64,000 nt of DNA from Candidatus Omnitrophota bacterium (GCA_029571225.1 JAKPTF010000097.1:417-64416), one strand, 5' to 3'; positions 2,771 through 56,760 are shown, counted from the stretch's first letter. Notes: a model not told the origin generated them from the letters alone. Made by a program: numbers and translations.

Positions 2771-3391
2771 ATGGGCGGCGGTTATGGAGTGGAAGCGCCT
2801 GAATACGGCCGAGAAGTGACAGCAGCCAGCGATATGATCCGGACGATCTTGAGAGATGCCGATGATTGGTGTAAAGGAAAAAACCGGCTCTACCGTGCAC
2901 CGTTGCTTGCATATTTCGTCTATGTGCTGGCGCGGCATCTTCGGGATCCTCTCTATACGAGCGCGCTAGGCGCTTTAAATCTGGGCATTCATGAGCTCGG
3001 TCACGTTGTTTTCGGCGTTCTGGGCCAGGCCCTGATGATCGCAGGCGGTACGGCCCTTCAACTGGCCGTGCCGGTCATAGCCGTATTCAATTTCTACCGC
3101 CTTCGCGATTATTTCGCTATCGCTTTGTCTTTCGGATGGCTTTCGACGAATTTATTCAACGTTGCCACGTATATGGCCGATGCGCGCAGGCAGGAATTGC
3201 CCCTGGTCGGCATCGGCGGGGAGAGCGTGAACCACGATTGGGAATATATATTTTCGGCGATGAATATCTTGCAATATGATACGGCGATCGCGGCATTCGT
3301 CCGCATGCTTGCGGTTCTGTCCATGCTGTGCTGCTTTGCAGCCGGGGCGTGGCTTTTGTGGCGTATGACGCCTGCGTCAGGTGACGGCTGA
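2771..3391 (+). CDS. Polytopic membrane protein with an HExxH motif (putative membrane metalloprotease-like)
   Basis: 206 aa with several hydrophobic helices. HELGH lies within or next to a helix (LNLGIHELGHVVFG). No family recognised. Confidence 0.5.
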   Translation: MGGGYGVEAPEYGREVTAASDMIRTILRDADDWCKGKNRLYRAPLLAYFVYVLARHLRDPLYTSALGALNLGIHELGHVVFGVLGQALMIAGGTALQLAVPVIAVFNFYRLRDYFAIALSFGWLSTNLFNVATYMADARRQELPLVGIGGESVNHDWEYIFSAMNILQYDTAIAAFVRMLAVLSMLCCFAAGAWLLWRMTPASGDG

Positions 3392-3392
3392 T

Positions 3393-4697
3393 ATGATTTC
3401 CAGAAGGGTTTCCGAAGGCCTGCCTGCGGGGTTCCAGCTTTCTCTGGAGTTTGCCCGAGCGTTCGATCTGATGGAAAATACTGATCAGTGCATCCTTGTT
3501 ACTGGCAAGGCGGGCACAGGCAAATCCACGCTGCTGCAGTTCTTTTTAGAGAACACCGCGAAGCAATGCGTTGTCCTTGCTCCAACCGGCGTTGCAGCCG
3601 TCAACGTGAACGGCCAGACCATTCATTCTTTCTTCGGTTTCCCTCCCAGGTTCATCCATGAAGACTCGATTCGACGCAGGCGAAACCGCAAGATGATCAA
3701 ACGCATCGATACGGTCATCATAGACGAGGTATCCATGGTTAGGGCGGATCTGATGGATGGTATAGATCAGGCCCTTCGCATTAACCGCGACCGGCCGGAC
3801 GAGCCTTTCGGCGGCGCGCAGGTGTTGCTGTTCGGAGACCTTTTCCAGCTGGCGCCGATCGTGGGGCAGGATTTGTCCGGCCTCTATCAGGAACATTACG
3901 CGACGCCTTATTTTTTCAGCGCACACGTTTTCAAGGAAGCCGCTTTTTTGCGGATAGAGCTCACCAGGATCTTCAGGCAGTCAGACGACAGCTTCATCGG
4001 CCTGTTGAACAGGATACGGAACAATCAATGCGACGACGGCGACTTCAGCCTCCTGAACAGCAGGGTCGATAGGTCCATCGGCGACGGCCCGGACCAGTGC
4101 GTCACGCTGACGGCGACCAATTACGACGCGAGGTCTTTGAACCAGAGGCGCCTTGCGAGATTGCCCGGCCGGCTGGTCGAGTATGAGGCGGATATCGCTG
4201 AAGACTTCGACGAGCCGTCATATCCGACCGACCGCATGTTGAGGCTTAAAGCAGGCGCCCAGGTGATGATGCTCAAGAACGACCCGCAGAAACGGTGGGT
4301 AAACGGTTCTATCGGCGTTATCCGGGCGCTTGTCGGCAGCGTTATAAGCGTCGATATCGACGGCAGGATCCGTGAGGTTGAGCCAGTTGAATGGCAGAAG
4401 ATCGTTTATGAATACAATAAAGCGGAGGACCGGATCGAAGAAAAGGTCATCGGGACGTTCACGCAGTATCCGCTCAAGCTCGCCTGGGCGGTTACGATAC
4501 ATAAGAGCCAGGGCCAGACTTTCGATAATGTCGTGATAGACCTGGGCAGGGGAGCGTTTGCCCACGGCCAGGTGTACGTGGCGCTTTCCAGGTGCACGAG
4601 CCTGCAGGGCATAACGCTCAAAAGGCCGGTCACCCCGCGTGATATTGTATTTGATGCCCGTATCCATGAATGCGCCGGCATGATGCCGGCGGGATGA
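3393..4697 (+). CDS. Pif1/RecD-family ATP-dependent DNA helicase
   Basis: Walker A GKAGTGKST, IIDEVSM (Walker B) and the C-terminal AVTIHKSQGQTFD...YVALSRC motif are typical of Pif1/RecD/TraA-like SF1B helicases. An alternative GTG start at 3381 overlaps the upstream gene. Confidence 0.85.
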   Translation: MISRRVSEGLPAGFQLSLEFARAFDLMENTDQCILVTGKAGTGKSTLLQFFLENTAKQCVVLAPTGVAAVNVNGQTIHSFFGFPPRFIHEDSIRRRRNRKMIKRIDTVIIDEVSMVRADLMDGIDQALRINRDRPDEPFGGAQVLLFGDLFQLAPIVGQDLSGLYQEHYATPYFFSAHVFKEAAFLRIELTRIFRQSDDSFIGLLNRIRNNQCDDGDFSLLNSRVDRSIGDGPDQCVTLTATNYDARSLNQRRLARLPGRLVEYEADIAEDFDEPSYPTDRMLRLKAGAQVMMLKNDPQKRWVNGSIGVIRALVGSVISVDIDGRIREVEPVEWQKIVYEYNKAEDRIEEKVIGTFTQYPLKLAWAVTIHKSQGQTFDNVVIDLGRGAFAHGQVYVALSRCTSLQGITLKRPVTPRDIVFDARIHECAGMMPAG

Positions 4698-9206: not shown

Positions 9207-9902
9207 ATGACCAGGCATACGATAAAGCTCTTATGGCTCTTTGCCGTGCTGTCGTGCGTTGCCGGATATCAGGCGGCGCTGGCCAGGGTCCCCATGCCGG
9301 GCGCCGTTGCTTATCTTTACGGCGTTTTCTTCGCGGCGGGCCTGCTGGCATGGCTGCATTTGACCCTGCGCATATTCACGTTCGGCAGGGACCTGGCGCG
9401 GTTCGCGCGGCGCGTGATCTCCAACGAATACGAAACCGGCGTCAAGGTATCACGGTTGTTTGACGATGAGGTTTCCGTCTTATCACGGCGTATCAACAAA
9501 ATGGCTGAGCAACTGGCTGCGTATGACGGACTGCAACGGGAACGGATATCGGTGGTATCCCGCGCGCTGGACGTCGTATGCCATTCGGTCAAGGATAATA
9601 TCATCATATTCGATATCAAACAGAACGAATTCCGGTTCAATCCCCCTGCCCAGGAGGCATTTGCGGTAGAACAGGAGTCATTCGGGTATAATGCCGTTGC
9701 GATGCGGGCAAACAATGCAGAATTCATCGGGCTTCTGCGGGCTGCGGTCGAAAAGGGCTCTTTCGCCACGAATGCGAGCGTGGACCTGGAGCTTCCCGTC
9801 AGGCAGACCCGCCGCAAGCTTGTTGTGAATATTACGCCGGTCAAAGATAAACATGAGACAGTGGAGTTGTGCCTGATCTTTTTCAAGAGCGCCGGCGCAT
9901 GA
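9207..9902 (+). CDS. Membrane protein with 2 TM helices, a HAMP-like linker and a PAS-like C-terminal domain; no output domain
   Basis: Two hydrophobic helices, then DLARFARRVISNEYETGVKV...DEVSVLSRRINKMAEQL (HAMP pattern), then ~110 aa with a PAS-like pattern (NIIIFD...FRFNPPAQEAF). 12-nt gap after ktrA. Confidence 0.55.
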   Translation: MTRHTIKLLWLFAVLSCVAGYQAALARVPMPGAVAYLYGVFFAAGLLAWLHLTLRIFTFGRDLARFARRVISNEYETGVKVSRLFDDEVSVLSRRINKMAEQLAAYDGLQRERISVVSRALDVVCHSVKDNIIIFDIKQNEFRFNPPAQEAFAVEQESFGYNAVAMRANNAEFIGLLRAAVEKGSFATNASVDLELPVRQTRRKLVVNITPVKDKHETVELCLIFFKSAGA

Positions 9903-33752: not shown

Positions 33753-35762
33753 ATGCCTGGCAAGCAATTATTAACGGAATTCCTCTCGCTTGTACAGATC
33801 GACGGATTCGAGGACGTATTCATCAACGATATCGTCCACGACAAGTTTTTCGGCCTGCCTTTGGAACCCATCATCGCGGCGGAAAAACGCCTGCGCGATC
33901 CCGCCAGCCGTTCCATTGCGTATTTTTCCATGGAATACGGCCTTGCCACGAGCTTCTATAATAAATTCTCCGCGACAAAGCCCCTGCATTATAATAACAA
34001 GATACAGGAGACGGAGGTCTTTTCGAACTTCCGGCTCGCCGATTATTTCTTCACCCTTAAGACGGATTCTATCATAGACCTTCCTATATATAGCGGCGGG
34101 CTGGGTGTCCTCGCGGGGGACACGGTCAAGACCATGGCGGATTATAAGCTCCCTGTCGTGGCGATCGGCATGCTCTGGAACACCGGTTATTTCAGGCAGA
34201 AATTCTGGTTCAAATACGGCCAGATGCCCGAAGCGATGCACTGGGACCTGTATTCGTATCCCGGTCTGATCCCCCTCAAGAACAAGGTCAAGATATCTCT
34301 GAAGGACGAGGAGATATACCTTCGTTTATGGAAATATTACGTCTACAGCTACCGGCACGACGCAGTCGTGCCTTTGATCCTTCTGGATTCCAACGCCAAT
34401 GAGAACATCGAGAAGAACAGGCGGCTTACCGATCAGCTTTACCGCAGCGACAACAACTGGATCAAGATCATGCAGCGGGTCATCCTGGGCATGGGCGGAG
34501 TAGCTGCCCTTAAGGAGCTGGGCTATCAGATCGACCTGTTCCATCTTAATGAAGGCCATGCGGTCTTCGCGTTCGTTGAAAAAGCCCGCGGCCTTCCTGC
34601 CGAGGGTGTCAGGGACCTTAAAAGGCATTTCGTTTACACCTGCCATACTCCCGTTGACGCGGGCCATGACCGTTTTCCGTCGGACGAATTGAACCGTATA
34701 TTGAAACGGGAGGATTTCGAGATCACCGATACGTTCGGCAGGGATAAAGGCGGTGTCATCAATCTCACCCTGCTGTCCATGAACATTGCTTCGTGCATTA
34801 ACGCCGTTTCGCATAATCATCAGAAGGTCATGCATATCCAGTTTCCAAAATACAAAGAACAGATCAAATACGTGACAAACGGCGTGCATTCCCATACCTG
34901 GATGTCTGACCGTTTCAAGGGAGTTTTTGAAAAATTTGCAAAAGAATTCGGGGACGTCAGGGCAAATCCTATGGCGCTCTCAAGGGCGCGGGACCTGCGA
35001 GCGAACAGGGACTTCCGTCAGGCGGTCTGGGATGCCCATCAGGCGAACAAACAGGACCTGTGCGACCTGCTGGGGAAATGGAAGCTTGACAAGGACGCCT
35101 TCACGATCTGCTGGGCCCGGCGCGTCGCCGCATATAAACGGCCGAGCCTGATCCTGCAGGATGTCAAAGCGCTTGTTGAGATCGGGAAAAAATTCGGCCA
35201 GGTCCAGATAATATTCGCCGGAAAAGCGCATCCGAACGATAACCTCGGGTTTACCTTCATCAACGAGATGCTCGACCGCGTCGACGAGCTGACCGATGTA
35301 TATGATTATCTGCGGTTCATAATGCTGGAGAATTACGAGATCTCGACTGCCAAAATGCTTGTCTCGGGCGTGGACGTGTGGCTGAACAACCCTTTGCCGC
35401 CTTTCGAGGCGTCGGGCACCAGCGGCATGAAGGCGATTATGAACGCGGTGGTCCAGGTTTCGACGATCGACGGCTGGATTGCCGAGGCGACCGAAATGGA
35501 TATCGGGCGGCTGTTCGGGTATGTCAACGAAGAGGGGACGATCGGCAACGAGCACGATCTGCACATGCGCGAGGATTCGGTCATGCTCTACAAGGCCCTT
35601 GAAGAGATGGTCTCATTGTATTATCAGTCCAACAGGAATGGGGTTATGGACGTATCCTCCGCCTGGATAGACCTCATGATCAACTGCCTGGCCGCGTCAG
35701 CCCGATTCAATACGTATCGCATGCTCGATCAGTATAAATCACTTGTCTGGAACATCCCATAG
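33753..35762 (+). CDS. glgP: Alpha-glucan phosphorylase (GT35, short 'alpha-glucan family' type)
   Basis: YFSMEYGL, GGLGVLAGD and EASGTSGMK (PLP-Lys motif). 669 aa. Confidence 0.85.
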   Translation: MPGKQLLTEFLSLVQIDGFEDVFINDIVHDKFFGLPLEPIIAAEKRLRDPASRSIAYFSMEYGLATSFYNKFSATKPLHYNNKIQETEVFSNFRLADYFFTLKTDSIIDLPIYSGGLGVLAGDTVKTMADYKLPVVAIGMLWNTGYFRQKFWFKYGQMPEAMHWDLYSYPGLIPLKNKVKISLKDEEIYLRLWKYYVYSYRHDAVVPLILLDSNANENIEKNRRLTDQLYRSDNNWIKIMQRVILGMGGVAALKELGYQIDLFHLNEGHAVFAFVEKARGLPAEGVRDLKRHFVYTCHTPVDAGHDRFPSDELNRILKREDFEITDTFGRDKGGVINLTLLSMNIASCINAVSHNHQKVMHIQFPKYKEQIKYVTNGVHSHTWMSDRFKGVFEKFAKEFGDVRANPMALSRARDLRANRDFRQAVWDAHQANKQDLCDLLGKWKLDKDAFTICWARRVAAYKRPSLILQDVKALVEIGKKFGQVQIIFAGKAHPNDNLGFTFINEMLDRVDELTDVYDYLRFIMLENYEISTAKMLVSGVDVWLNNPLPPFEASGTSGMKAIMNAVVQVSTIDGWIAEATEMDIGRLFGYVNEEGTIGNEHDLHMREDSVMLYKALEEMVSLYYQSNRNGVMDVSSAWIDLMINCLAASARFNTYRMLDQYKSLVWNIP

Positions 35763-35763
35763 T

Positions 35764-36513
35764 ATGCGGTTTCCCCCAGCCATCCTTGCCGTCCTGCCGA
35801 TTATTGCGTGTTCCTGCGCGCGTGCGCCCGTAATCCCGAGCACACCGTATTCCACAGGCCCGGCTTATTCGGGGCCGTCAGCCCCGGCCATGCGCCAGGA
35901 CATGTATCATGTCGTGGGCCCTTCCGAAACGCTCTGGCGCATCAGCAAAATGTACGACGTGAAGATCGAAGACATCATGCGCGCCAACGGCCTCTCTAGC
36001 AGAGAAGTCCTTGCCCGCGGACAGCGCCTTCTGATACCCCGCGCGGCTCCCTTGCGGCCGGTTATAGCACTTTATCCTTCGTCAAAATGGAAGTATATCA
36101 TAATCCATCACAGCGCGACCGACGAAGGCACCGCCAATTCGCTGTTCGATCTGCACAACCGGCGCGGGTTCGACGGCCTCGGATATGATTTCATTATCGA
36201 TAACGGGACCGGCGGGAAACAAGACGGCCAGATCGAGGTGTCCGGGCGCTGGGTAAAACAGATAGACGGGGCGCATTGCCGGGCCGCGGGCATGAACCAT
36301 CAGGGCATAGGCATCTGTTTGGTGGGCAATTTCAGCAGGGAGCGGGTGTCCCAGAAACAAATGGATTCGCTGGTCTATCTGGTAGATCTTCTGCGCAAGT
36401 ATTACAGTGTGCCCAGAAGCCGTATTCTCGGCCACGGCCAGGTGCCGGGCGCAGCGACCGAGTGCCCGGGGCTGAAGTTTCCCTGGGACGAATTCTGGTC
36501 TAAATTGAAATAA
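35764..36513 (+). CDS. LysM-domain N-acetylmuramoyl-L-alanine amidase (Amidase_2/AmpD-like) lipoprotein
   Basis: Lipobox IIACSC. LysM YHVVGPSETLWRISKMYDVKIEDIMRANGL. Amidase_2 IIIHHSAT...GYDFIIDNG...HCRAAGMNHQGIGICLVGNF. Confidence 0.8.
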   Translation: MRFPPAILAVLPIIACSCARAPVIPSTPYSTGPAYSGPSAPAMRQDMYHVVGPSETLWRISKMYDVKIEDIMRANGLSSREVLARGQRLLIPRAAPLRPVIALYPSSKWKYIIIHHSATDEGTANSLFDLHNRRGFDGLGYDFIIDNGTGGKQDGQIEVSGRWVKQIDGAHCRAAGMNHQGIGICLVGNFSRERVSQKQMDSLVYLVDLLRKYYSVPRSRILGHGQVPGAATECPGLKFPWDEFWSKLK

Positions 36514-36534
36514 CGGAGGGAGTCTTTTTATTCT

Positions 36535-36563
36535 TTGAACTTTGACTGAAAGTGTGATATACT
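36535..36563 (+). promoter_or_regulatory. Putative promoter of the signalling operon
   Basis: TTGAAC (36535-36540), 17-nt spacer, TGA-TATACT extended -10 (36555-36563). It is flanked by the short inverted repeat ctttgaa...ttcaaag. Confidence 0.5.
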
Positions 36564-36640
36564 TTTTTCAAAGTGCGGCTTTACGACAGGAGTGAAAGGT
36601 GGCTCCGGACAAACATACGCATACAGCCCGCAGAATGGTA

Positions 36641-36664
36641 CCCAGGATATCCTCCTGGGTTTTT
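36641..36664 (+). promoter_or_regulatory. Terminator-like hairpin in the leader of the signalling operon
   Basis: Perfect 7-bp stem cccagga/tcctggg, 5-nt loop, then TTTTT. It ends 17 nt before ATG 36682. Confidence 0.45.
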
Positions 36665-36681
36665 CTATTGTTGGGGGAAAT

Positions 36682-37440
36682 ATGCCCGATAAGATATTGA
36701 TCGTCGATGATGATGCGGAATTCCGGTCAGAGCTGCGGTCGGCGCTTGATTGTTATCAGGTGGTAGAGGCATCCAGCGGCAAAGACGCCATGCATCTTCT
36801 GCGCAAGCCCAATGACATAGACGTGGTGCTTCTTGACGTTATGATGCCCGGTTTAAGCGGGACCGAGGTCCTACGGGAAATAAAGCGTTTGTCTCCCGAC
36901 CTGTCTATCGTCATGCTGACCGGCTACAGCTCAAAGGATGTAGCCGTGGAATCTTTGAAGGGCCACGCGGACGAATATATCGAAAAACCCCCGGATATCG
37001 ATAAGACCAAGGAGATCATCGATCGCCTGCTACAGAAGAAGCGGGGCGGCCCTGATGCGTGCGCTTACAGCCGCGAGGACAAGATCGAGCAGGTCAAGAG
37101 GTTCGTCGAACGCAACTACCAGAAAAAGGTGACGCTGAAGGACGCGGCGCAAGCGGTGTTTTTAAGCCCCAAATATCTCAGCAGGATTTTCAAGGAACAA
37201 ACGCGTATGGGGTTCAACGACTATAAACTTCGATTCGTTTTGATCCGCGCCAAAGAATTGCTCTCCAGGACCGGATTTACCATAAACCAGATATCCGACC
37301 AGATGGGGTATCAGAACGCCGAATCGTTCATACGGATCTTCGAGAAACTTACTGGCATGACCCCTACCGGATACCGCAAGCAATGCAGGCTTCGCAGACA
37401 AAAAATCCGCAATAACTCCTCGAAACGAAAGATAAGGTGA
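36682..37440 (+). CDS. Response regulator, REC + AraC-type HTH
   Basis: ILIVDDD, VLLDVMMPG, MLTG and IEKP form a canonical receiver. The C-terminus has an AraC HTH (ISDQMGYQNAESFIRIFEKLTGMTPTGYR). Confidence 0.85.
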   Translation: MPDKILIVDDDAEFRSELRSALDCYQVVEASSGKDAMHLLRKPNDIDVVLLDVMMPGLSGTEVLREIKRLSPDLSIVMLTGYSSKDVAVESLKGHADEYIEKPPDIDKTKEIIDRLLQKKRGGPDACAYSREDKIEQVKRFVERNYQKKVTLKDAAQAVFLSPKYLSRIFKEQTRMGFNDYKLRFVLIRAKELLSRTGFTINQISDQMGYQNAESFIRIFEKLTGMTPTGYRKQCRLRRQKIRNNSSKRKIR

Positions 37441-40199
37441 ACAGGGCTCAAAAAAAGGGGGCGGATGGGATGCGCGACCCAAAGGCAAAATGGTTCTCTG
37501 ACCGCGGCAATCCGAAGCGCCGGAGTTCCGCGCGCCTTCAGGCCGAGATGATTGATGAACTCAAGGCCCTCCTTGACGTCGATCGCGATATTATCATCAT
37601 CCGCGACATGGAGGGCCGTATTGTTTTCTGGAACCGCGGGGCGCAGGATGTCTTCGGCTGGGAAAAGGATTACGCTGTCGGCAGGCTCTACAGCGAGCTG
37701 GAGGGCATCAGGTATCCATGTCCGGCAGAGGAGATCATGCGCTGTCTTGACAGAGAGGGCAGATGGGAGGGAGAGATTACGTATGCCCCCGAGGGCCGCG
37801 ATCCGGTGTATCTTGAAAGCAGGTTGTGCGTGCAGAAGGATGATGCGGGGGTCCCGATCGGTATCATGGAGGTCCATAACAATATTTCAGACCGCAGGAA
37901 GGCTGAAAGACTCCTGCGAGCAAGCGAAGCGCACTACCGTTTGCTAACCGATAATATATCGGATATCGTGGGTATCATCGACCGGAATATGCATTTCACC
38001 TTTGTCGGCAGCAATGCAAGCCGTCTGGTAGGTTTTACCGCGGATGAGGTGATGCGCAGGGACGTTTCGGGCATGTTGACCCCTGAATCGTTCGAGCACG
38101 CCCGTAAGATTATTGCCCATCAATTCGAGATAGACGGTAGGCCTGGCCAGGATCCTGACAGGAGTTTCCTGATCGAGGTAGAGATTCTGACAAAAAACGG
38201 TGAGGCCAGGCTTTTCGAGCTGAAGGTAAACTTCATCCGCGACGAAGCGGGTGCCCCTGCGAGCCTCCTGGGCATCGGCCGCGATATAACGGCCCACAAG
38301 GCGTTAGAAAGGAAGCTTAAGGAAAACGAGAACCTATACCACTCTTTTTTGAAAAACTTTCCGGGCATTGCGTATCGCGGCCTGATAGACGGATCTGTCC
38401 TGTTCTTTGAAGGCCGGGTTGAGGAGATTACGGGGTATCGCGGCGATGATTTTTCCGCATCCAGGGTCCGCTGGAAGGACCTTATATTCCCGGAAGACCT
38501 GCCGGGAATACGGCAGTCGTGGGACCGGATCCACGAAGAGGCAGGTTGTTCCCTTGAGCGCGAATACCGCATTATTCGCAAGGACCGCCAGGTCAGATGG
38601 GTCCGTGAGCATATCCAGAACAGATCCGATGATTCCGGCAAGCCGGCCTTTGTGGAAGGCGTTATCCAGGATATAACCGATCTTAAGAAATCATATGAAG
38701 AACAGCTGTGGCTGGCGTCTTTCCCTGAACTGGACCCCCATCCGGTCGTAGAAGCCGATATCGCCGGAAATGTGTATTATATGTCCCCTGCCGCACTTGC
38801 CCTTTTCCCTGACCTTGCGGCCAAAGGCCTCAAACACGGCTATCTGTCGGGAGCCGGATGGATTCTTGACCGGATCAAGACCGAGAAACGTGAGCCCTTC
38901 ACGCGCGAGGTCGAGGTAAACGGCCTCTGGTACTTGCAGAAGATTTTTGCCGTAGAGAATGGCACGCGGTTGAGAATATACGGATCGGATATAAGCGAAA
39001 GCAAGCTGATAACCCAGCGCCTGCGCGCGGTCAATCAACAACTGATGGATATCATAGACTTCCTGCCTGACGCGACGTTCGTCGTCGACCGGCACAGGCG
39101 CATCATCGCCTGGAACAGGGCGCTGGAAGAGATGACCGGCGCGAAAAAAGAGGAGATGGTTGGCAGGGGGGACTACGCATACGCGGTCCCGTTTTACGGC
39201 AAGGCTCGGCCGATTGCGCTCGATCTGCTCTTTGAACCCGATAAAGAGACAGAATCCCTATATACGTATGTAAAAAGAAAAGATACCCGCCTTGTAGCCG
39301 AAGTTTTCTTGCCCAGGCTCAATCACGGCAAGGGTCTTTTTGTATGGGTTAATGTCGCGCCTTTCTACGACGAGAAAGGCGCGCTCATAGGCGCTATCGA
39401 ATCCATCCGCGATATCACGGAGCATAAAGAGGCGGAGGCGATCCTGCGCCAGGACCGCCAGGCGTTCGAGCAGCTGGTAAAGAGCAAGACCGAGGAGCTG
39501 CTGCGTGTGCAGAAGGAACTGGCGGATTCCAGGCATCTCTCCGAGATCGGCGCGCTGGCGGCGACCATCGCGCATGAACTGCGCAATCCCCTGGCTGCGA
39601 TCAGGACAGCAGCCTACAACATCCGGCGGAAATCCGCAGACAGCAGGCTTGCGAGCCATCTGGACAATATAGACAAAAAGATCATAGAAAGCGATCAGAT
39701 CATTAATAATCTTCTGTCATATTCCCGCATCAAGACGCCCAGGCTCGAGGCGGTCAGGATCCGTATGATTCTGGAGGAGTGTCTGAAGGCAGCCGCTGAC
39801 CGTTTTGCCAAGTATAAGGTTAAGGTACGGCTGAAATGTGCCTGCGGGAAAGATGATATGATCCTCGCCGATCCTTTACATATGAGGGAGTTGTTCAATA
39901 ATATCCTCAACAACGCATATGAGGCGCTTGAAAACAAGAAAGGTATCATCACGATCACGGCCGATTATGAGCCCAGGAGCGTTTTTACGGTTTCTTTCAC
40001 GGATAACGGGGCCGGCATAAGCCCCGACATCCTGGAAAAAATATCGCGGCCTTTCTTTACGACAAAATCAAAAGGCACGGGGTTGGGCCTGGCCGTATGC
40101 CATCAGCTGCTTGCTTTGCATAACGGCAGCATGCAGATCAAGAGCGCGATAGGAAAGGGAACAACCGTGACCGTTACCCTGCCCGTAGGTATCCAATGA
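37437..40199 (+). CDS. Cytoplasmic sensor histidine kinase with about five PAS-like domains
   Basis: GTGA overlap with the upstream gene. Repeated PAS patterns. H-box IAHELRNPLAAI, N-box NNILNNAYEA, G1 DNGAGI, G2 GTGLGLAV. 920 aa with no TM helix. Confidence 0.85.
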   Translation: MNRAQKKGADGMRDPKAKWFSDRGNPKRRSSARLQAEMIDELKALLDVDRDIIIIRDMEGRIVFWNRGAQDVFGWEKDYAVGRLYSELEGIRYPCPAEEIMRCLDREGRWEGEITYAPEGRDPVYLESRLCVQKDDAGVPIGIMEVHNNISDRRKAERLLRASEAHYRLLTDNISDIVGIIDRNMHFTFVGSNASRLVGFTADEVMRRDVSGMLTPESFEHARKIIAHQFEIDGRPGQDPDRSFLIEVEILTKNGEARLFELKVNFIRDEAGAPASLLGIGRDITAHKALERKLKENENLYHSFLKNFPGIAYRGLIDGSVLFFEGRVEEITGYRGDDFSASRVRWKDLIFPEDLPGIRQSWDRIHEEAGCSLEREYRIIRKDRQVRWVREHIQNRSDDSGKPAFVEGVIQDITDLKKSYEEQLWLASFPELDPHPVVEADIAGNVYYMSPAALALFPDLAAKGLKHGYLSGAGWILDRIKTEKREPFTREVEVNGLWYLQKIFAVENGTRLRIYGSDISESKLITQRLRAVNQQLMDIIDFLPDATFVVDRHRRIIAWNRALEEMTGAKKEEMVGRGDYAYAVPFYGKARPIALDLLFEPDKETESLYTYVKRKDTRLVAEVFLPRLNHGKGLFVWVNVAPFYDEKGALIGAIESIRDITEHKEAEAILRQDRQAFEQLVKSKTEELLRVQKELADSRHLSEIGALAATIAHELRNPLAAIRTAAYNIRRKSADSRLASHLDNIDKKIIESDQIINNLLSYSRIKTPRLEAVRIRMILEECLKAAADRFAKYKVKVRLKCACGKDDMILADPLHMRELFNNILNNAYEALENKKGIITITADYEPRSVFTVSFTDNGAGISPDILEKISRPFFTTKSKGTGLGLAVCHQLLALHNGSMQIKSAIGKGTTVTVTLPVGIQ

Positions 40200-40594
40200 A
40201 AAAGCCCAGGATATTGCTCGTAGATGATGATGAAGAGATCTGCGAAGAGATCGGAGGACTTCTTAAAGATTCAGGATTCAAAATCATGATCGCACATGAA
40301 GGCAGCGCCGCCGTCAGGCTGCTCGAAGGCAATAGCTTTGATCTATTGATCCTTGATCTGAAAGTGCCCGGGATGTCAGGTATCGAGATACTCCGGCATG
40401 TCAGGGGCAGGCGCCTGCCCGTCAAGGTCCTGATTGTGACCGGTAAACCGTTGAAAGACATGTATGAACAGGACGAATCTCCGCTACCCGAAGATCCAGA
40501 GCAGGATGAACTGTTCCAGTTAGCCGACGGCTTTGTCGGAAAACCGTTTGAAATTGAGGTTCTGCTTGCCCGCATCAAAACGCTCACCTTATAA
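40196..40594 (+). CDS. Single-domain response regulator (REC only)
   Basis: ATGA overlap with the upstream gene. ILLVDDD, LLILDLKVPG, IVTG and GKPF, with an acidic insertion before the last strand. Confidence 0.85.
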   Translation: MKKPRILLVDDDEEICEEIGGLLKDSGFKIMIAHEGSAAVRLLEGNSFDLLILDLKVPGMSGIEILRHVRGRRLPVKVLIVTGKPLKDMYEQDESPLPEDPEQDELFQLADGFVGKPFEIEVLLARIKTLTL

Positions 40595-40721
40595 AGGCAA
40601 CCCGGGTAGAAAAAAGTCAGAAAAAAGGTGAAACCTGCCATAGACAACCCTCAGTATGTAATTTAATATATGTAAGTCGGAGTTATATATCTTTTTAAAA
40701 TTAGAGCGAAAGGATTGCCAA

Positions 40722-41111
40722 ATGGCCCAAAAAAGCATCCTTATAGTTGATGACGATCCGGAGTTCCTCCAGGAAATGCAGGAAACGCTGCGGCTCAGCG
40801 GGTATAAGGTGGATTCCCTGGACAGGGCAAATTCCGTTGTGGACCACGCGGCAAAAAATCCTCCAGACCTTATTCTGCTGGACTTGAAAATGTCCGGCAT
40901 GACCGGGTTTGAAGTTATCAAAGGCCTGCGGGGATCTCCCCGGACCGCTCAAATACCGATCATTGCGATGTCCGGGTATTTCAGTGAGCAGAAGGATTGC
41001 ACATTATTCGATTTTTTCCAGATAAAGCAATGCCTCCAGAAACCGTTTCATCCGCTTGATGTGATATCCCATATCGAAAGCACGCTTAAAGATGCCGACA
41101 TCTCTATCTGA
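40722..41111 (+). CDS. Single-domain response regulator (REC only)
   Basis: ILIVDDD, LILLDLKMSG, AMSG and QKPF. Paralogue of the gene at 42239-42616. Confidence 0.85.
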   Translation: MAQKSILIVDDDPEFLQEMQETLRLSGYKVDSLDRANSVVDHAAKNPPDLILLDLKMSGMTGFEVIKGLRGSPRTAQIPIIAMSGYFSEQKDCTLFDFFQIKQCLQKPFHPLDVISHIESTLKDADISI

Positions 41112-42222
41112 ACCGCCACCCTGTGCGTATCATGCATGCGCCCCGCAGGAGAGACAGCGTATTAATGAGCTCACCAGGAGCTTTGTAAAAGGGTCCCTGA
41201 GGATCCTGATGAGGGCCCTCGGTTCCGGGGCAGGGGCACTTTTCCTTTTCGATCCTGAAGCGCGTTCGCTTGTCCTTGAATCTTTCCTCGGAAGTTTGCC
41301 GGATAGCGCTGTGAGGTATTCCTGGCCGGGTAGAAGGCCGTGTTTGTCGATCCCGCTTCTTGCCGGAGGGTATTTGTTCGGCCTGGTGAAAATCGGAACC
41401 CGGCAGGACGGCGCAAGATTCTCGGCCCAGGACCTGCGGTATGCCAGCACGCTGTGCGGATATATCTGCAGAATAGTAGAGGACCAGTTACGCTTCAGTC
41501 TCCAGCGCGGCGAGCTCGATAGAGCCCGTTGCGAAAAGATGGCGCTTGAAAAATATGCTTCGGTCGGCAGCCTCGCTGCGGGTATCGTGGGCCAGATCAA
41601 CAGCCCCCTTGACGCCGCGCTTCGTTACACCGGCCTTGTGCGCCCGCATCTCGACTTTGACGGTCGCGGCTCCGAATATCTGTCCCTGGTGCGCGCCGGC
41701 CTTGAACATATTTCTGATATTACCGCATCGCTATCCGGCCTGTACGCTTTGCCTGGTGACCCTGCGGTTACCCTGGACGTCGTTGATATTCATGGCCTGA
41801 TCGATGAGGCGGTTTCGGTGTTCCGCAGTCAGCGCCGGCATCAGGTGAGGATCAACGTCTGTCACGGCGGGCCGCTGCTGGTCCGCGCTGACAGGGCGCT
41901 GCGCCATGTTTTCACCAATATCATCAAAAATGCCTTTGAGGCGATGCCCGGCGGCGGCGAACTGAACATCAGCTCCGAGATCAAACAGGCAGGGCTGCAG
42001 ATCGTGTTTCATGATACGGGATGCGGCATAACGAGCCATGATCAAAAGAGGCTTTTTGAGCCTTTTTTCACGACAAAACCGGAAAAAGCCGGCAACGGGA
42101 TCGGCCTTTCGTTCTGCAAGGATATCATAGAGCGCTACGGCGGGCGTATCGTCGTAAAAAGTGCTCCTGGTGAGGGAAGCACGTTTACCGTTCTGTTTCC
42201 CAGGTCTGTGCTTGTACAGTAG
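41092..42222 (+). CDS. GAF-like + histidine-kinase-like protein lacking the phospho-accepting His (pseudo-kinase with an intact ATP-binding domain)
   Basis: The H-box position reads LAAGIVGQINSPL instead of ..AHEI.NPL (Gly codon at 41590-41592). The N-box (NIIKNAFEAM), G1 (HDTGCGI), F (FEPFFTTK) and G2 (GNGIGLS) are intact. The start is uncertain (41092 or downstream). Confidence 0.7.
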   Translation: MPTSLSEPPPCAYHACAPQERQRINELTRSFVKGSLRILMRALGSGAGALFLFDPEARSLVLESFLGSLPDSAVRYSWPGRRPCLSIPLLAGGYLFGLVKIGTRQDGARFSAQDLRYASTLCGYICRIVEDQLRFSLQRGELDRARCEKMALEKYASVGSLAAGIVGQINSPLDAALRYTGLVRPHLDFDGRGSEYLSLVRAGLEHISDITASLSGLYALPGDPAVTLDVVDIHGLIDEAVSVFRSQRRHQVRINVCHGGPLLVRADRALRHVFTNIIKNAFEAMPGGGELNISSEIKQAGLQIVFHDTGCGITSHDQKRLFEPFFTTKPEKAGNGIGLSFCKDIIERYGGRIVVKSAPGEGSTFTVLFPRSVLVQ

Positions 42223-42238
42223 GAAAGGGGCGTGTGAG

Positions 42239-42616
42239 GTGGCGAAGGGGCGTATTTTGATAGTTGACGACGATAAAGAATTCAGGGAAGAGCTTCGGGA
42301 AACGCTGGACCTGTCAGGTTATGAGGTGATCGAAGTCGAGGATGCCCGGGTGGTGCAGGATACAGCAAGCCACACGAGCCCGGATGTGATCGTCCTTGAC
42401 CTGAAAATGGACGATATGAACGGTTTTGAGGTGGCCGAAGAACTTAAGCGTTTCACCTCGACCGTGAGCATCCCTGTCATCGCTATGACAGGATATTTCA
42501 GAGAGGACGAGCATGCCCCGCTCATGAACATCTGCGGAATCACCAAGTGCATCAAAAAGCCCTTCAATCCGCTTGACGTCATCGCCGCAATCGAAGCGGC
42601 GATGCACGGCGTCTAA
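42239..42616 (+). CDS. Single-domain response regulator (REC only)
   Basis: GTG start after AGGAAAGGGG. ILIVDDD, VIVLDLKMDD, AMTG and KKPF. The track ORF starts at 42161. Confidence 0.8.
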   Translation: MAKGRILIVDDDKEFREELRETLDLSGYEVIEVEDARVVQDTASHTSPDVIVLDLKMDDMNGFEVAEELKRFTSTVSIPVIAMTGYFREDEHAPLMNICGITKCIKKPFNPLDVIAAIEAAMHGV

Positions 42617-42627
42617 TCTGATTTCTA

Positions 42628-42656
42628 TTGCCTAAAAAATCCCCCCGCGATATAAT
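42628..42656 (+). promoter_or_regulatory. Putative internal promoter for the GGDEF gene
   Basis: TTGCCT (42628-42633), 17-nt spacer, TATAAT (42651-42656). Confidence 0.45.
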
Positions 42657-42682
42657 ATTCGAATATAACCCGAGGAGGTTCC

Positions 42683-43585
42683 ATGGACCGTGAGAAGATC
42701 ATTGTGGTTCGGGCAGGCCCGTATGTATCCAAGACGATGAACGAGAGCTTGAAGGATTACGATATATATAATCTGGAGTCGCTCGATAAGGCCCAGGAAC
42801 TTTACAAAAGCGGCAATTTTCATACCATCGTGACCGAATTGGACCCGAAAGAGGGCAATGCGGTCGAAATGGTCACCAAACTGCAGGCGAATGATTCCGA
42901 CGTCCCGATCATCGTGGTAACCACGCACGATTCTGTCCCTGTCGCCGTAGAGGCTATGAAGGCTGGTGCGTATGACTATATCACGACGCCTTTCAATCTT
43001 GACGAGCTGAAGCTTGTGGTACAGCATGCGCTGGAGCGAAAAAAGCTGAAAGAGGAGGTTAAGGAAAAACGTCATTTCCAGGAAATGGCTATTACGGACG
43101 GCCTGACCATGATATACAACCGCGCGTATTTCGACGAATTGCTCCGCAGGGAAGAGGACCGAGCTCGCCGGTATCCGCAAAAATTCTCTCTTCTCATGAT
43201 GGATCTGGACGATTTCAAGAAATACAACGATTCATACGGCCATACCGCCGGGGATTTAATCTTGAAGCATGTCGCACAGCTTTTTCAGAGGACGATCCGC
43301 ACCTCGGATTTTGTGGCGCGGTACGGAGGGGAGGAATTCGTTATCATCACGCCGCATACGGATAAGATCCATGCGTCGGTCCTGGCGTCTAGGCTTCTCT
43401 CAATGGTGAACAGGTCCGTGATTCAGGTCAATGAGAAAACACAGCTGTCGGTATCCATTTCTATCGGCCTGGCCACGTTCGGGGACGACGCCACGACCAG
43501 GGACGTATTGGTCCAGAGCGCTGACAAGGCGCTGTACCAGGCCAAGCAGCTGGGGAAGAACCGGGTTTGCCTTTTTGGGACATGA
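42683..43585 (+). CDS. Diguanylate cyclase: degenerate receiver domain + GGDEF (GGEEF, with RxxD I-site)
   Basis: GGEEF at 43325-43339 with RTSD five residues upstream. The receiver fold lacks the N-terminal acidic pair (IIVVRAG) and the conserved Lys (YITTPF). Confidence 0.85.
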   Translation: MDREKIIVVRAGPYVSKTMNESLKDYDIYNLESLDKAQELYKSGNFHTIVTELDPKEGNAVEMVTKLQANDSDVPIIVVTTHDSVPVAVEAMKAGAYDYITTPFNLDELKLVVQHALERKKLKEEVKEKRHFQEMAITDGLTMIYNRAYFDELLRREEDRARRYPQKFSLLMMDLDDFKKYNDSYGHTAGDLILKHVAQLFQRTIRTSDFVARYGGEEFVIITPHTDKIHASVLASRLLSMVNRSVIQVNEKTQLSVSISIGLATFGDDATTRDVLVQSADKALYQAKQLGKNRVCLFGT

Positions 43586-43598
43586 ATATCCGCCACCG

Positions 43599-44426
43599 AT
43601 GACCGCCGCCAGCTTTGCGAGCATGAGCTACCGGCAGTGGGATGGGGCAGGAGAGAATGCCGTGCTTCTACTTGTCCACGGCCTCGGCGGGCATACGGGC
43701 AGGTGGGAGCCTCTGGCCGTGTTTTGTGCGCAGCGGGGCATCTCTTCCTACGCGCTTGCCCTGAGGGGTTTTGGTGACGCCCCAGGGATCCCGGGGCACA
43801 TCGATTCGTTCGGCACATACCTCTCGGATATAGAAGCCCTCGCCGGCGTCATCCGTGACCGGCATCCGCATCACAAAATATACCTTCTGGGCGAAAGCCT
43901 GGGCGGCCTCATCTGCTTTCTTGCCGCCGCCCGTATTCCCGGCCTTTGTTCCGGACTGATCTGCCTGTCGCCTGCGTTCAAGAGCACGCTTAAGATCGGC
44001 TCTGCGGCGCGCGCGGGCATCCTGTTCTCCGCTTTTTTCTCGCCGGAGCGCCAGTTTACCATGCCGTTTTCTTTGACATGCTGCAGCCGTGATGAATCGC
44101 TCGTGGAACGTTTTGAAAAAGACACCCGCGAGCACCGGTTTGCTTCCGCGCGGCTGCTTTTCGAGACGAGGCTTGGCCAGGCGACTGCGCGGCGCCTGAG
44201 GGGCAAAATAACCGTGCCTGTTCTCTTTCTGGTGAGCGGCCGCGATACGATGGTCAGTACAGAGGAGAGCGTCAGGATTTTCAAAGCGTTGAACGTGAAA
44301 GACAAAACCATAAACGTTTACCCGGACATGTATCATGCGCTTTCGATCGATCTGGGCAGGGAAAAAGTTTTTGAGGATATCATCGGGTGGGTTAATGCCC
44401 ATTCATTAAAGGGGGCCGAGGCATGA
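43599..44426 (+). CDS. Alpha/beta hydrolase (lysophospholipase/monoacylglycerol-lipase-like)
   Basis: LLVHGLGGHTGRW, nucleophile elbow GESLGG, and a C-terminal ...MYHAL (His). The track ORF starts at 43431. Confidence 0.7.
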   Translation: MTAASFASMSYRQWDGAGENAVLLLVHGLGGHTGRWEPLAVFCAQRGISSYALALRGFGDAPGIPGHIDSFGTYLSDIEALAGVIRDRHPHHKIYLLGESLGGLICFLAAARIPGLCSGLICLSPAFKSTLKIGSAARAGILFSAFFSPERQFTMPFSLTCCSRDESLVERFEKDTREHRFASARLLFETRLGQATARRLRGKITVPVLFLVSGRDTMVSTEESVRIFKALNVKDKTINVYPDMYHALSIDLGREKVFEDIIGWVNAHSLKGAEA

Positions 44427-45922
44427 AATATATACTGGCGATTGACCAGGGTACGACCGGCAGCCGGGCCGTCGCATATGACGCCCGGGGCCGCTGTGTG
44501 GCCAGCTCCTACGAGGAGTTCAGGCAGTATTTCCCTGCGCCTGGCTGGGTGGAACATGATCCGCAGGAGATCTGGCGCAGCGTCAAGAATTCGGTAGTTG
44601 CTGTGCTGAAGAAAATCCCTTCGTCATCCATCGCGGCCATAGGCATAACCAATCAGCGTGAGACCACGGTAATATGGGACCGAGATACCGGCACCCCTGT
44701 ATACCGCGCAATCGTATGGCAATGCCGCAGGACAGCAGGCAGGTGCAGGGCGCTGCGGGCACGCGCGGGCATGAGCGAATGGTTCCGCGCCAGGACCGGC
44801 CTTCCGATAGACGCATATTTCTCTGCCACGAAGATCGAGTGGATATTAAAGAACGTTCCTGGTGCCAGCAAGAAAGCGGCCGCGGGAAGGCTGTGCTTCG
44901 GCACGACGGACAGCTGGGTATTATGGAAGCTTACCGGCGGCAGGGTTCACGCCACAGATTACACGAATGCGTCCCGCACCATGCTTTTTAATATAGCCGG
45001 TCTGGAGTGGGACAGGGATATCCTCAAGAAATTCTCGGTACCATTAGGTATGCTGCGGTCTGTCAAACGTTCATCGGGCGTGTTCGGACACACGGCCGGT
45101 TCAGGGCCACTTCCCCCTGGCATTCCCATATCGGGTATAGCAGGCGATCAGCAGGCGGCGTTGTTCGGCCAGGCATGCTTTGAACCGGGATCCGTGAAGA
45201 ACACATACGGCACCGGCGCATTTCTGCTCTTGAACACGGGGGCCAGGCGCATCATGTCGGGATACGGCCTGATAACCACGCTCGCGTGCGGCGCTGACGG
45301 CGGCCCGGTGTATGCCCTGGAAGGGCCGATATTCATCGCCGGGGCAGCGGTCCAATGGTTCCGCGACGGGCTTAAGGTCATACGCGCGGCAGCCGATTCC
45401 GAAAAGATCGCCTATTCCGTAAAAGATACGGCAGGCGTGTATTTCGTTCCGGCGCTGGTCGGCATGGGAGCGCCGTACTGGGACCCTGACTGCAGGGGTA
45501 CGATAACGGGCATTACGCGGGGCACTACCGCGGCGCATATCGTGCGCGCCGGCCTTGAGGCAATGTGTTTTCAAACCCGTGACGTTCTTGATGCGATGCG
45601 CCGGGATTCAGGCCTCAAAATCGATCAATTAAAGGTCGACGGAGGCGCTGCGAAGAACGATTTCATTCTCCAGTTTCAGGCTGATATCACCGGATTGCGG
45701 GTCATCCGGCCGGTCGTGGTCGAAAGCACTTCGCTGGGCGCGGCGTATCTGGCAGGGCTCGCTGTGCGTTTCTGGAAAGGGACCGGCGAGATTTCCGCGT
45801 GCTGGCGCAGGGATAAAGTTTTCATCCCGCGCATGGCAGCCTCCAGAGCCAGGTCCTTATATTCCGGATGGCGCAAGGCAGTCAGCATGACCTTATCCGG
45901 GCAAAGAAAGGATCTCTTGTGA
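44423..45922 (+). CDS. glpK: Glycerol kinase
   Basis: YILAIDQGTTGSRA, GITNQRETT, GDQQAALFGQ and VDGGAAKND. ATGA overlap with the upstream gene. Confidence 0.92.
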   Translation: MKYILAIDQGTTGSRAVAYDARGRCVASSYEEFRQYFPAPGWVEHDPQEIWRSVKNSVVAVLKKIPSSSIAAIGITNQRETTVIWDRDTGTPVYRAIVWQCRRTAGRCRALRARAGMSEWFRARTGLPIDAYFSATKIEWILKNVPGASKKAAAGRLCFGTTDSWVLWKLTGGRVHATDYTNASRTMLFNIAGLEWDRDILKKFSVPLGMLRSVKRSSGVFGHTAGSGPLPPGIPISGIAGDQQAALFGQACFEPGSVKNTYGTGAFLLLNTGARRIMSGYGLITTLACGADGGPVYALEGPIFIAGAAVQWFRDGLKVIRAAADSEKIAYSVKDTAGVYFVPALVGMGAPYWDPDCRGTITGITRGTTAAHIVRAGLEAMCFQTRDVLDAMRRDSGLKIDQLKVDGGAAKNDFILQFQADITGLRVIRPVVVESTSLGAAYLAGLAVRFWKGTGEISACWRRDKVFIPRMAASRARSLYSGWRKAVSMTLSGQRKDLL

Positions 45923-56314: not shown

Positions 56315-56343
56315 TTGATAGCAGATGTGTTTTGCGGTAAAAT
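56315..56343 (+). promoter_or_regulatory. Putative promoter
   Basis: TTGATA (56315-56320), 17-nt spacer, TAAAAT (56338-56343). Confidence 0.45.
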
Positions 56344-56388
56344 ACGGCTGATGACACAAATAATATCCCCTTTGCAAGGAGGTCTTCG

Positions 56389-56760
56389 ATGGCTGGCAGG
56401 AAAATTCTGGTGGTGGATGATGAAGTCGACGTCCGCGACATCCTGAGCAAAAAACTGACCGAGAGCGGCTATGACGTCAAAGTCCTGTCCGCGGGCAAGG
56501 ATGTCCTCCAACATTGCAGGGTGAGCCCCCCGGATCTTCTCCTTCTGGATATCGTACTCAACGACACGGACGGATATTCTGTCGCCGAAGAACTGCGCAG
56601 GGATAAATCAATACCCAAAGTCCCCATTATCTTCATGACAGGCCAGGACCTCGATGTCCCCGAAATGGCAAGGAACAGCGCGCGCTTCGGCGTGTGCGAT
56701 TTTATCACCAAGCCGTGCGCCTTCGCTGACGTGCTGGAGAAGATCCGTCTCTTCATATGA
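56389..56760 (+). CDS. Single-domain response regulator (REC only)
   Basis: ILVVDDE, LLLLDIVLND, FMTG and TKPC. Confidence 0.85.
   Translation: MAGRKILVVDDEVDVRDILSKKLTESGYDVKVLSAGKDVLQHCRVSPPDLLLLDIVLNDTDGYSVAEELRRDKSIPKVPIIFMTGQDLDVPEMARNSARFGVCDFITKPCAFADVLEKIRLFI

Follow-up and report, generated by a model that had tools for sequence, protein, structure and literature searches.

To our knowledge, pseudo-histidine kinases and pseudo-receivers are common in genomes, and a mechanism is known for few of them: DivL, RedE, PsmA and the second receiver of PleD. RedE is a kinase-like protein that cannot autophosphorylate and strips phosphate from the receiver RedF (PMC2755868), and the DHp-CA region of DivL has been repurposed to sense phosphorylated DivK (DivK~P; PMC4211667). 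Here we describe a signalling gene cluster at 36.5–43.6 kb of a 64,000-nucleotide (64-kb) stretch of DNA from a Candidatus Omnitrophota bacterium (JAKPTF010000097.1:417-64416; this whole stretch is referred to as the window), in which seven consecutive open reading frames (ORFs), g1 to g7, were called on the + strand, the strand of all sites described with them. They code for a response regulator with a receiver (REC) and an AraC-type domain (g1), a PAS-containing histidine kinase (g2), three stand-alone receivers (g3, g4 and g6), a kinase-like protein lacking the phospho-acceptor His (g5) and a GGDEF protein with a degenerate receiver (g7), and this gene content, listed by an earlier annotation made without database searches (the sequence-only reading), was confirmed by Pfam and NCBIfam. 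We put the chances at about even that the locus is a lineage-specific two-component cluster in which g2 feeds g1, g4 and g6, g5 modulates, and g7 stands outside the relay.

The kinase-like protein g5 (41092–42222), whose ATG start at 41092 is backed by the N-termini of homologues and by the reading frame of the related locus L081, was resolved by Pfam, alignment and AlphaFold into a GAF remnant, a DHp domain in which Gly167 replaces the His, and an intact CA domain. Pfam reported a HATPase_c match of 88 bits and a sub-threshold GAF match restricted to the C-terminal third; no HisKA match was obtained from Pfam, and no other conserved His was present within the DHp domain. The phospho-acceptor position reads AAGIVGQINSPL (Gly) in g5 as opposed to AAGIVHEVNNPL (His) in relatives. 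The earlier description of g5 as a GAF kinase-like protein without the phospho-His was right about the His, replaced by Gly167, and overstated the GAF domain, of which a deletion of about 36 residues in the core has left only a remnant. Among the 11 members of the g5 clade, the phospho-acceptor position is occupied by Gly in 10 and by Glu in one, the kinase-specific acid at His+1 varies (E, Q or R), and His+4 is Ser (Ser171) in all, compared with Asn in each of nine aligned His-bearing kinases (seven members of the sister clade and two more distant relatives). Within the protein, mean identity peaks in DHp helix 1 (71%) and the CA domain (68%), and the nucleotide-binding motifs NIIKNA, DTGxGI, FEPFFTTK and GxGxGL are conserved in the clade. 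In line with the earlier suggestion of a pseudo-kinase that acts as an ATP-binding scaffold or modulator, the N, G1, F and G2 boxes have been kept and the clade is conserved, which marks g5 as a functional pseudo-kinase and not a wreck. The ratio of nonsynonymous to synonymous substitution rates (dN/dS) of g5, the highest in the cluster, was 0.26 in comparison with L081 and 0.17 in comparison with L082 (the latter unreliable, dS > 1), clearly indicating purifying selection. All cluster genes are under purifying selection (dN/dS 0.03–0.26 and dS 0.33–0.52 versus L081); rates were taken from L081 alone, the values against both L082 and L083 being unreliable (dS > 1). Judged by its sequence, g5 is a conserved pseudo-histidine kinase of independent origin in which His has been exchanged for Gly.

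In the AlphaFold model of g5, the sensor remnant is made up of a helix and four strands, from which an unbroken helix runs on as DHp helix 1, followed by the CA domain; the model matched sensor-DHp-CA kinases in Foldseek. By sequence and fold, the closest solved structures were ZraS, KinB, HK853 and YF1, with DivL and RetS ranking lower. About 11 protein clusters of g5 were found at 47–100% identity, all without a HisKA match, and those that are named belong to Candidatus Omnitrophota. No close relative of g5 was found among the GTDB species representatives, where the best matches were canonical, His-bearing kinases at 31–35% identity, and metagenome contigs searched with the g5-clade alignment gave, among the matches listed, only relatives at 24–37%, which added nothing on synteny. 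A profile search of 1.8 billion representatives returned more His-less relatives, namely P0241 (Gly, truncated GAF), P0251 (Pro) and P0244 (Glu, full GAF); in the distant relatives P0244, P0251 and P0011, Glu or Pro occupies the His position instead of Gly. The possibility that g5 arose as a duplicate of g2 was rejected, as its DHp-CA region is 28% identical to that of g2 versus 50–57% to that of a sister clade. The members of this sister clade are canonical GAF kinases encoded beside an NtrC-type sigma54 regulator and a PocR-GAF protein in a conserved triad. Four sister-clade loci were identified (L084, L085, L086 and L001); of the three loci examined, two (L085 and L086) have genes of the PEP-CTERM/exosortase type nearby, and the gene for sigma54 itself lies near the triad in L084, L085 and L086.

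All seven genes are present in L081 (g5 83% identical), L082 (66%) and the contig of P0004 (56%). The contigs of P0007 and P0008 (g5 54–56%) carry g1–g6 with a hydrolase gene directly after g6, L083 contains a partial copy of the cluster, and L172–L174 (g5 40–41%) carry only g1, a g2 of 790 aa, g4, g5 and g6, without g3 and g7. Among the seven relatives informative at the g7 junction, three (L172 and the contigs of P0007 and P0008) lack g7. The conserved core of the cluster is five genes, g1, g2, g4, g5 and g6, and g3 and g7 are accessory. Treating the seven genes as one unit is not sustained by the deepest comparison (g5 40%), which keeps five of them, with g3 and g7 variable. Gene order, which the sequence-only reading had suggested comparing among relatives, proved to be the same in L081, L082, L083 and the contigs of P0004, P0007 and P0008. 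The flanks are conserved in all these contigs as well, with genes for a glucan phosphorylase and a LysM amidase upstream and for the hydrolase, a glycerol kinase and a glycerol-3-phosphate dehydrogenase downstream. More telling than the shared order is the differential retention within the cluster: the g4-g5-g6 block keeps company with g1-g2 throughout, against a background of gain or loss of g3, g7 and single PAS domains of g2.

The kinase g2 extends from 37437 (GTG start, 920 aa) or 37470 (ATG start, 909 aa) to 40199 and was identified by Pfam, NCBIfam and AlphaFold as a soluble multi-PAS histidine kinase of the HisKA type. Its H-box, IAHELRNPL (HisKA, 47 bits), contains the phospho-acceptor His713 (920-aa numbering), which is invariant in 10 orthologues. 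The HATPase_c scores of g2 and g5 are alike (87–88 bits), and the N, G1, F and G2 boxes are present in both; the orthologues of g2 form about 10 clusters, a distribution as narrow as that of g5. The AlphaFold model of g2 shows five PAS-like units followed by the DHp and CA domains. Of the five PAS domains claimed earlier, four pass the Pfam thresholds and the fifth (residues 419–532) comes from the AlphaFold model only: this segment had no Pfam match, an hhalign comparison with the other four PAS units was negative, and a profile match to the PAS domain of TyrR was weak (E 0.04). In the model, built with ten orthologues, it adopts the two-strand/helices/three-strand order of the other four units, with a predicted local distance difference test (pLDDT) score of 70–80, and one orthologue lacks it cleanly, as a single block. 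Orthologues differ in how many PAS domains they have, P0395 (L172) lacking PAS1, P0393 lacking PAS2 and P0396 lacking both PAS1 and the fourth unit; almost no variation is seen in the DHp-CA region. The protein is soluble, as had been proposed: it has no transmembrane segment. No hydrophobic 19-mer of transmembrane strength was found in any cluster protein, the Kyte-Doolittle maximum of g2 being 0.96.

Receiver residues were read by alignment to CheY D12/D13/D57/T87/K109, and all five are canonical (DD/D/T or S/K) in g1, g3, g4 and g6. The cluster matches its earlier portrayal as one active kinase with several receivers in that g2 has an intact H-box and four of the receivers are phosphorylatable. 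The response regulator g1 (36682–37440) consists of 252 aa with a canonical REC and an AraC-type helix-turn-helix (HTH) domain (Pfam, REC and HTH_18/AraC), and its orthologues were called at 252–254 aa. The three stand-alone receivers were assigned by Pfam and the CheY alignment. Whereas g3 (40196–40594), which is accessory, is absent from L172, g4 (40722–41111) is kept in all relatives, L172 included. An acidic insertion of about 12 residues, EQDESPLPEDPEQDE, lies between beta4 and beta5 of g3 (residues about 85–108) and is conserved in L081, L082 and L083. The two REC-only genes that bracket g5, g4 and g6 (42239–42616), are paralogues, as the sequence-only reading had recognized, with 48.8% identity compared with 16–32% for the other receiver pairs. 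g6 is the slowest-evolving of the cluster genes present in L172, with 82% identity to its L172 counterpart versus 70% for the glycerol kinase and 83% for the flanking glucan phosphorylase; this slow evolution fits a hub protein with several partners. At the kinase-contact positions of helix 1, which set partner specificity in the HK853-RR468 pair (positions 13/14/17/21 of RR468, as named in PDB entry 4jav), the residues are E-F-E-A in g1, E-F-E-T in g4 and in g6, E-I-E-L in g3 and Y-V-T-S in g7.

The junction lengths given previously were all correct: g1 and g2 overlap by 4 nt (or are separated by a gap of 29 nt if g2 starts at ATG 37470), g2 and g3 overlap by 4 nt, g3 and g4 are separated by 127 nt, g4 and g5 overlap by 20 nt, and gaps of 16 nt and 66 nt precede g6 and g7, respectively. 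Within the 7 kb of the cluster lie five of the six REC-encoding ORFs of the window, both of its HATPase ORFs and its sole GGDEF ORF, a clustering of signalling ORFs that is therefore not due to chance. Promoter-like sites were not enriched as a class (11 found versus 7.1 ± 3.0 expected); those preceding g4 and g7 are conserved in every relative with DNA.

Three such sites fall in the cluster. The first, P1 (36535–36563, TTGAAC-17-TATACT, TG-extended; promoter scan), lies upstream of g1 and is kept in L081, while L082 and L172 carry other -10-like sequences (TATACT/TATAAT) at the equivalent place. The leader of g1 contains a terminator-like hairpin with a T-run (36640–36669; terminator scan and fold) that ends about 12 nt before the ATG of g1, and a hairpin and T-run 12–25 nt before the start codon are common to four lineages (the window, L081, L082 and L172). 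The stems in L081, L082 and L172 differ yet stay complementary (CCCAGG/CCTGGG, CCAGGG/CCCTGG and ACCCGT/ACGGGT, respectively); the hairpins were compared by eye, as indels kept RNAalifold from aligning those of the four leaders. This hairpin may serve in transcription attenuation, or it may terminate the amidase gene upstream. Each g1 leader (36565–36681 in the window) also has an AGGAG-like motif and a short, non-conserved ORF, and an Rfam search of 35500–44600 at E ≤ 1 gave no match, including none to a c-di-GMP (cyclic diguanylate) riboswitch in the g1 leader.

Alignment of the lineages revealed a conserved cis element before g4 (40605–40669), composed of an A-rich direct repeat, the motif CAT.GAC and a -35/-10-like pair (P2). 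The repeat is AGAAAAAAG-TC-AGAAAAAAG, with an 11-bp period, and the block GT[AG]GAAAAAAGTCA.AAAAAAG..GAAA.....CAT.GAC is common to five lineages, as is P2 (TAGACA-17-TAATAT in the window), with a spacing of 16–17 nt. The repeat was located at 9264–9282 in L081, 4163–4181 in L082, 3649–3667 in L083 and 6279–6297 in L172, and the block and P2 persist where g3 is missing. Each cluster-bearing locus has the core pattern once, 168 other loci lack it, and the window has one copy where 0.08 would be expected, which speaks in favour of a genuine internal promoter with a protein-binding site ahead of it. As the only DNA-binding protein of the cluster, g1 is a candidate binder of the repeat. The third site, P3 (42628–42656, TTGCCT-17-TATAAT; promoter scan), is conserved before g7 in L081 and L082; in L172, where there is no g7, the hydrolase gene follows it directly.

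On these grounds we propose a working model in which we infer all phosphotransfer, docking and DNA-binding steps from sequence. The kinase g2 would integrate cytoplasmic signals through its PAS array and autophosphorylate on His713, being the sole cluster protein able to do so, and would pass the phosphoryl group to g1 and to the paralogous receivers g4 and g6, as well as, in most lineages, probably to g3. That g1, g3, g4 and g6 share one kinase is indicated indirectly by their similar helix-1 contact residues and by their conserved co-location. g5 would descend from a GAF-type, NtrB-like kinase that lost the phospho-acceptor His (now Gly) and the GAF core and kept the receiver-docking DHp helix 1 and the nucleotide-binding CA domain, and it would most likely dock g4 and/or g6. 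Once docked, it could drain phosphoryl groups from g4 and g6, as RedE does, or read their phosphorylation state, as DivL does, and in either case it would modulate the amount of phosphate reaching g1. Expression would be organized in three units, consisting of P1, the leader hairpin and g1-g2(-g3); P2 with the direct repeat and g4-g5-g6; and P3 with g7 and the hydrolase and glycerol genes.

Several observations weigh against this model. The conserved gene order is in part inherited synteny, because the flanking housekeeping genes are syntenic in all relatives. The specificity residues in the DHp domain of g5 match those of its NtrC-pairing sister kinases and not those of g2, which counts against docking to g4 and g6. 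At His+4, g5 carries Ser and not the Asn or Thr required of a phosphatase, which makes the phosphatase reading uncertain. In the NtrB-like kinase CrdS, the His and the acid at His+1 are dispensable for HisKA phosphatase activity and Asn or Thr at His+4 is required (PMC3510030); Gln, Asp and Ala at this position were inactive, and Ser was not among the residues tested (PMC3510030). The loss of His and of the acid at His+1 in g5, together with the fixed Ser, would fit a tuned phosphatase and a complete loss of catalysis alike. Moreover, g5 has only a GAF remnant, whereas phospho-specific binding by DivL needs at least two PAS domains (PMC4211667). No further copies of the pre-g4 repeat, which might have signalled a g1 regulon, were found elsewhere in the window, leaving regulon-level support wanting, and the terminator scan found no terminator-like site between g3 and g4 or between g6 and g7, so that read-through transcription is possible.

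It is possible, though we regard it as unlikely, that the cluster comprises two independent modules whose adjacency is inherited, with g1-g2(-g3) as an ordinary two-component system and g4-g5-g6 as a separate receiver/pseudo-kinase unit that draws its phosphate from acetyl phosphate or from a kinase whose gene lies elsewhere. Such a division would agree with the separate promoter-like site and upstream element conserved before g4 in five lineages, with the derivation of g5 from a different kinase family than g2, and with the DHp specificity positions His+8/+11/+15, which are A/R/L in g5, as in the sister-clade kinases, and A/T/N in g2. However, in all relatives, including those with g5 at only 40% identity, g4-g5-g6 were seen nowhere but beside g1-g2, over a range in which g3 and g7 proved variable, the helix-1 contact residues E-F-E-A/T are common to g1, g4 and g6, and the orthologues of g2 and g5 are equally narrow in distribution (about 10 clusters each).

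Lower still do we rate the view that all seven genes form one branched phosphorelay with two outputs, AraC-dependent transcription and c-di-GMP production by g7. In its favour, all seven genes lie side by side on one strand in the window, L081, L082 and the contig of P0004, no terminator-like site separates g6 from g7, and both genes have a very low dN/dS (0.03–0.05). Shared strand, however, weighs little, since nearly the whole 64-kb window is co-directional, and is therefore no evidence for operon membership here; nearly all substantial ORFs in the window lie on the + strand, and the cumulative GC skew climbs throughout. The product of g7 (42683–43585) combines a pseudo-receiver with a GGDEF domain (Pfam, REC 51 bits and GGDEF 163 bits). 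At the CheY positions given above it reads R/A/E/T/T, which bears out the earlier description of its receiver as degenerate, and the receiver cannot be a phosphotransfer target because the acidic pair, the Asp and the Lys are missing. By contrast with the earlier proposal that phosphotransfer splits the output between AraC and c-di-GMP, g7 thus lacks DD, D and K, has its own promoter-like site, P3, and belongs to a family with members in unrelated contexts. In fact, two members at 56–58% identity (L087 4328–5254 and L089 7001–7912) stand alone among unrelated genes with no kinase gene beside them. The conserved P3 leads directly into the hydrolase gene in the g7-less L172, and g7 is absent from the three informative relatives mentioned above; in the window, g7 ends 13 nt before the hydrolase gene, which in turn overlaps the glycerol kinase gene. 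Read most simply, g7 probably opens the hydrolase/glycerol operon downstream and lies outside the phosphorelay.

The GGDEF domain of g7 is active-looking: it scored 189 bits with TIGR00254 (cut-off 37.4) and contains a GGEEF active site with an RxxD I-site five residues before it (RTSD-FVARY-GGEEF). The g7 family consists of proteins of about 300 residues, mostly from Omnitrophota, and includes more than 70 clusters of Glu-type pseudo-receiver cyclases. RxxD is found in 110 of 112 aligned family sequences, g7 included, and nearly all members keep GG[DE]EF. Among 111 full-length members, 77 have Glu in place of the phospho-Asp together with a degenerate acidic pair. Glu is the commonest substitution at the Asp position of pseudo-receivers and may mimic phosphorylation (PMC12632262).

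A third alternative, that g5 and g7 are a phosphorylation-dead cognate pair in which g5 docks the pseudo-receiver of g7 and controls c-di-GMP by binding alone, with g4 and g6 as competitors, strikes us as very unlikely. If it were true, the relay from g2 to g4 and g6 would control c-di-GMP without a phosphoryl group ever reaching the cyclase, and phosphorylated g4 or g6 would compete with, or displace, the pseudo-receiver of g7 on the DHp domain of g5. This would be consistent with the DHp specificity residues that g5 shares with its sister kinases, whose partners are NtrC-type regulators, with the NtrC-like character of the g7 receiver (NCBIfam and PDB matches to FixJ, NtrX, AtoC and NtrC1), and with the resemblance of helix 1 of g7, GPYVSKTMNESL, to that of the partner regulators of the sister clade, EPLIRKSLYESL (L001). 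The receiver of g1, however, is closer to those partner regulators (70–85 bits versus 55–75 bits for g7), the helix-1 contact positions vary across the g7 family, with Pro at +2 in 7 of 77 members, g5 persists without an adjacent g7 in three relatives, and g7-family members at 56–58% identity occur away from any kinase gene. The narrower idea of the g7 receiver as a specific descendant of the ancestral partner of g5 was weakened by the higher scores of g1 and by the variable helix 1 of the g7 family.

Finally, that g5 is merely the decaying, non-functional remnant of a kinase gene is highly improbable, for although it evolves faster than any other cluster gene (40% identity to L172 versus 51–82% for the others), has lost the His and part of the GAF domain, and was shortened by gene callers in two relatives, its reading frame is intact in every relative with a dN/dS of 0.17–0.26, Gly167, Ser171 and the deletion are common to about 11 clusters at 47–83% identity, and the ATP-binding motifs and DHp helix 1 are highly conserved.

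Two further signalling genes lie elsewhere in the window. The sole REC ORF outside the cluster codes for a stand-alone receiver (56341–56757, Response_reg 83 bits) and is followed by one ORF without a Pfam match and by two genes for TPR proteins. The PilZ gene that the sequence-only reading had reported at 1518–1874 is real (35.9 bits, cut-off 22.5), but it lies 35 kb away and has no visible link to the cluster; it follows a gene for a DUF4412 protein and has a PIF1-like helicase nearby (neighbouring coordinates 648–1505 and 3381–4697).

The locus provides a small, soluble and evolutionarily stable pseudo-kinase that is Gly-substituted, GAF-truncated and always bracketed by two paralogous receivers. 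As g5 always stands beside one true kinase and one transcription factor, it is a clean test case and a compact model for pseudo-kinase function, and it bears on a general question, namely whether transmitters without kinase activity serve as phosphatases or as phosphate sinks, or instead sense whether a receiver is phosphorylated. The locus also exemplifies how gene adjacency can wrongly suggest that a cyclase is the output of a relay. For the uncultured phylum Omnitrophota, it is among the few signalling modules with a defined conserved core.

Compared with systems described elsewhere, the output proteins show both likenesses and differences. YesN regulators are usually paired with YesM-type kinases. 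Like these CheY-AraC (YesN-type) regulators, g1 places a tandem AraC HTH after its REC domain; its presumed partner, however, is a HisKA/NtrB-like kinase that senses through PAS domains. Over its full length, g7 aligns with the REC-GGDEF cyclase DgcR of Leptospira (PDB 6zxm/6zxc/6zxb; E 1e-39) and with the second, non-phosphorylated receiver and the GGDEF domain of PleD (PDB 1w25), but DgcR is activated through a phospho-Asp, where g7 has Glu, without the acidic pair and the Lys.

Among canonical kinases, those nearest to g5, at 35–40% identity, are the GAF kinases of PrsK/PrsR-like PEP-CTERM pairs with an NtrC-type regulator, which have the DHp helix 1 motif AAGIV.E.N.PLDG..RY and the CA motifs in common with it. 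They differ in having the His, a full GAF domain, an adjacent sigma54 regulator and a PocR-GAF gene, none of which g5 has. In line with this, g5 scored 87 bits with TIGR02916 against a cut-off of 300, below the equivalog level, and no NtrC-type or PEP-CTERM neighbour was found in the window.

The RedCDEF 'four-component' system of Myxococcus xanthus (PMC2755868) resembles the locus in bringing together one true kinase, a non-autophosphorylating kinase-like protein and several receivers, and in that the kinase-like protein acts on a stand-alone receiver, as we propose for g5. It differs in that RedE, which gets phosphate from RedD, retains a phosphorylatable His where g5 has Gly, and in that the Red cluster has a dual-receiver protein and no DNA-binding output. 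DivL-DivK of Caulobacter crescentus (PMC4211667; PDB 4q20) shares with g5 a kinase fold with a conserved substitution of the phospho-His, retention of the N, G1, F and G2 boxes and an associated stand-alone receiver; g4 and g6 match a DVU0259/DivK-type model below threshold (57 bits versus a cut-off of 160). DivL, however, has Tyr where g5 has Gly, and several PAS domains where g5 has a GAF remnant and no PAS in Pfam. Moreover, DivL is membrane-anchored and alphaproteobacterial, whereas the kin of g5 are GAF/NtrB-like Omnitrophota kinases, and 4q20 scored 83 bits against g5 versus 156 for ZraS, far below ZraS, KinB and HK853. The sequence comparisons point to an origin of g5 independent of DivL. 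Taken together, the locus is a modest variation on known bacterial signalling that is not new in kind and would not surprise a specialist.

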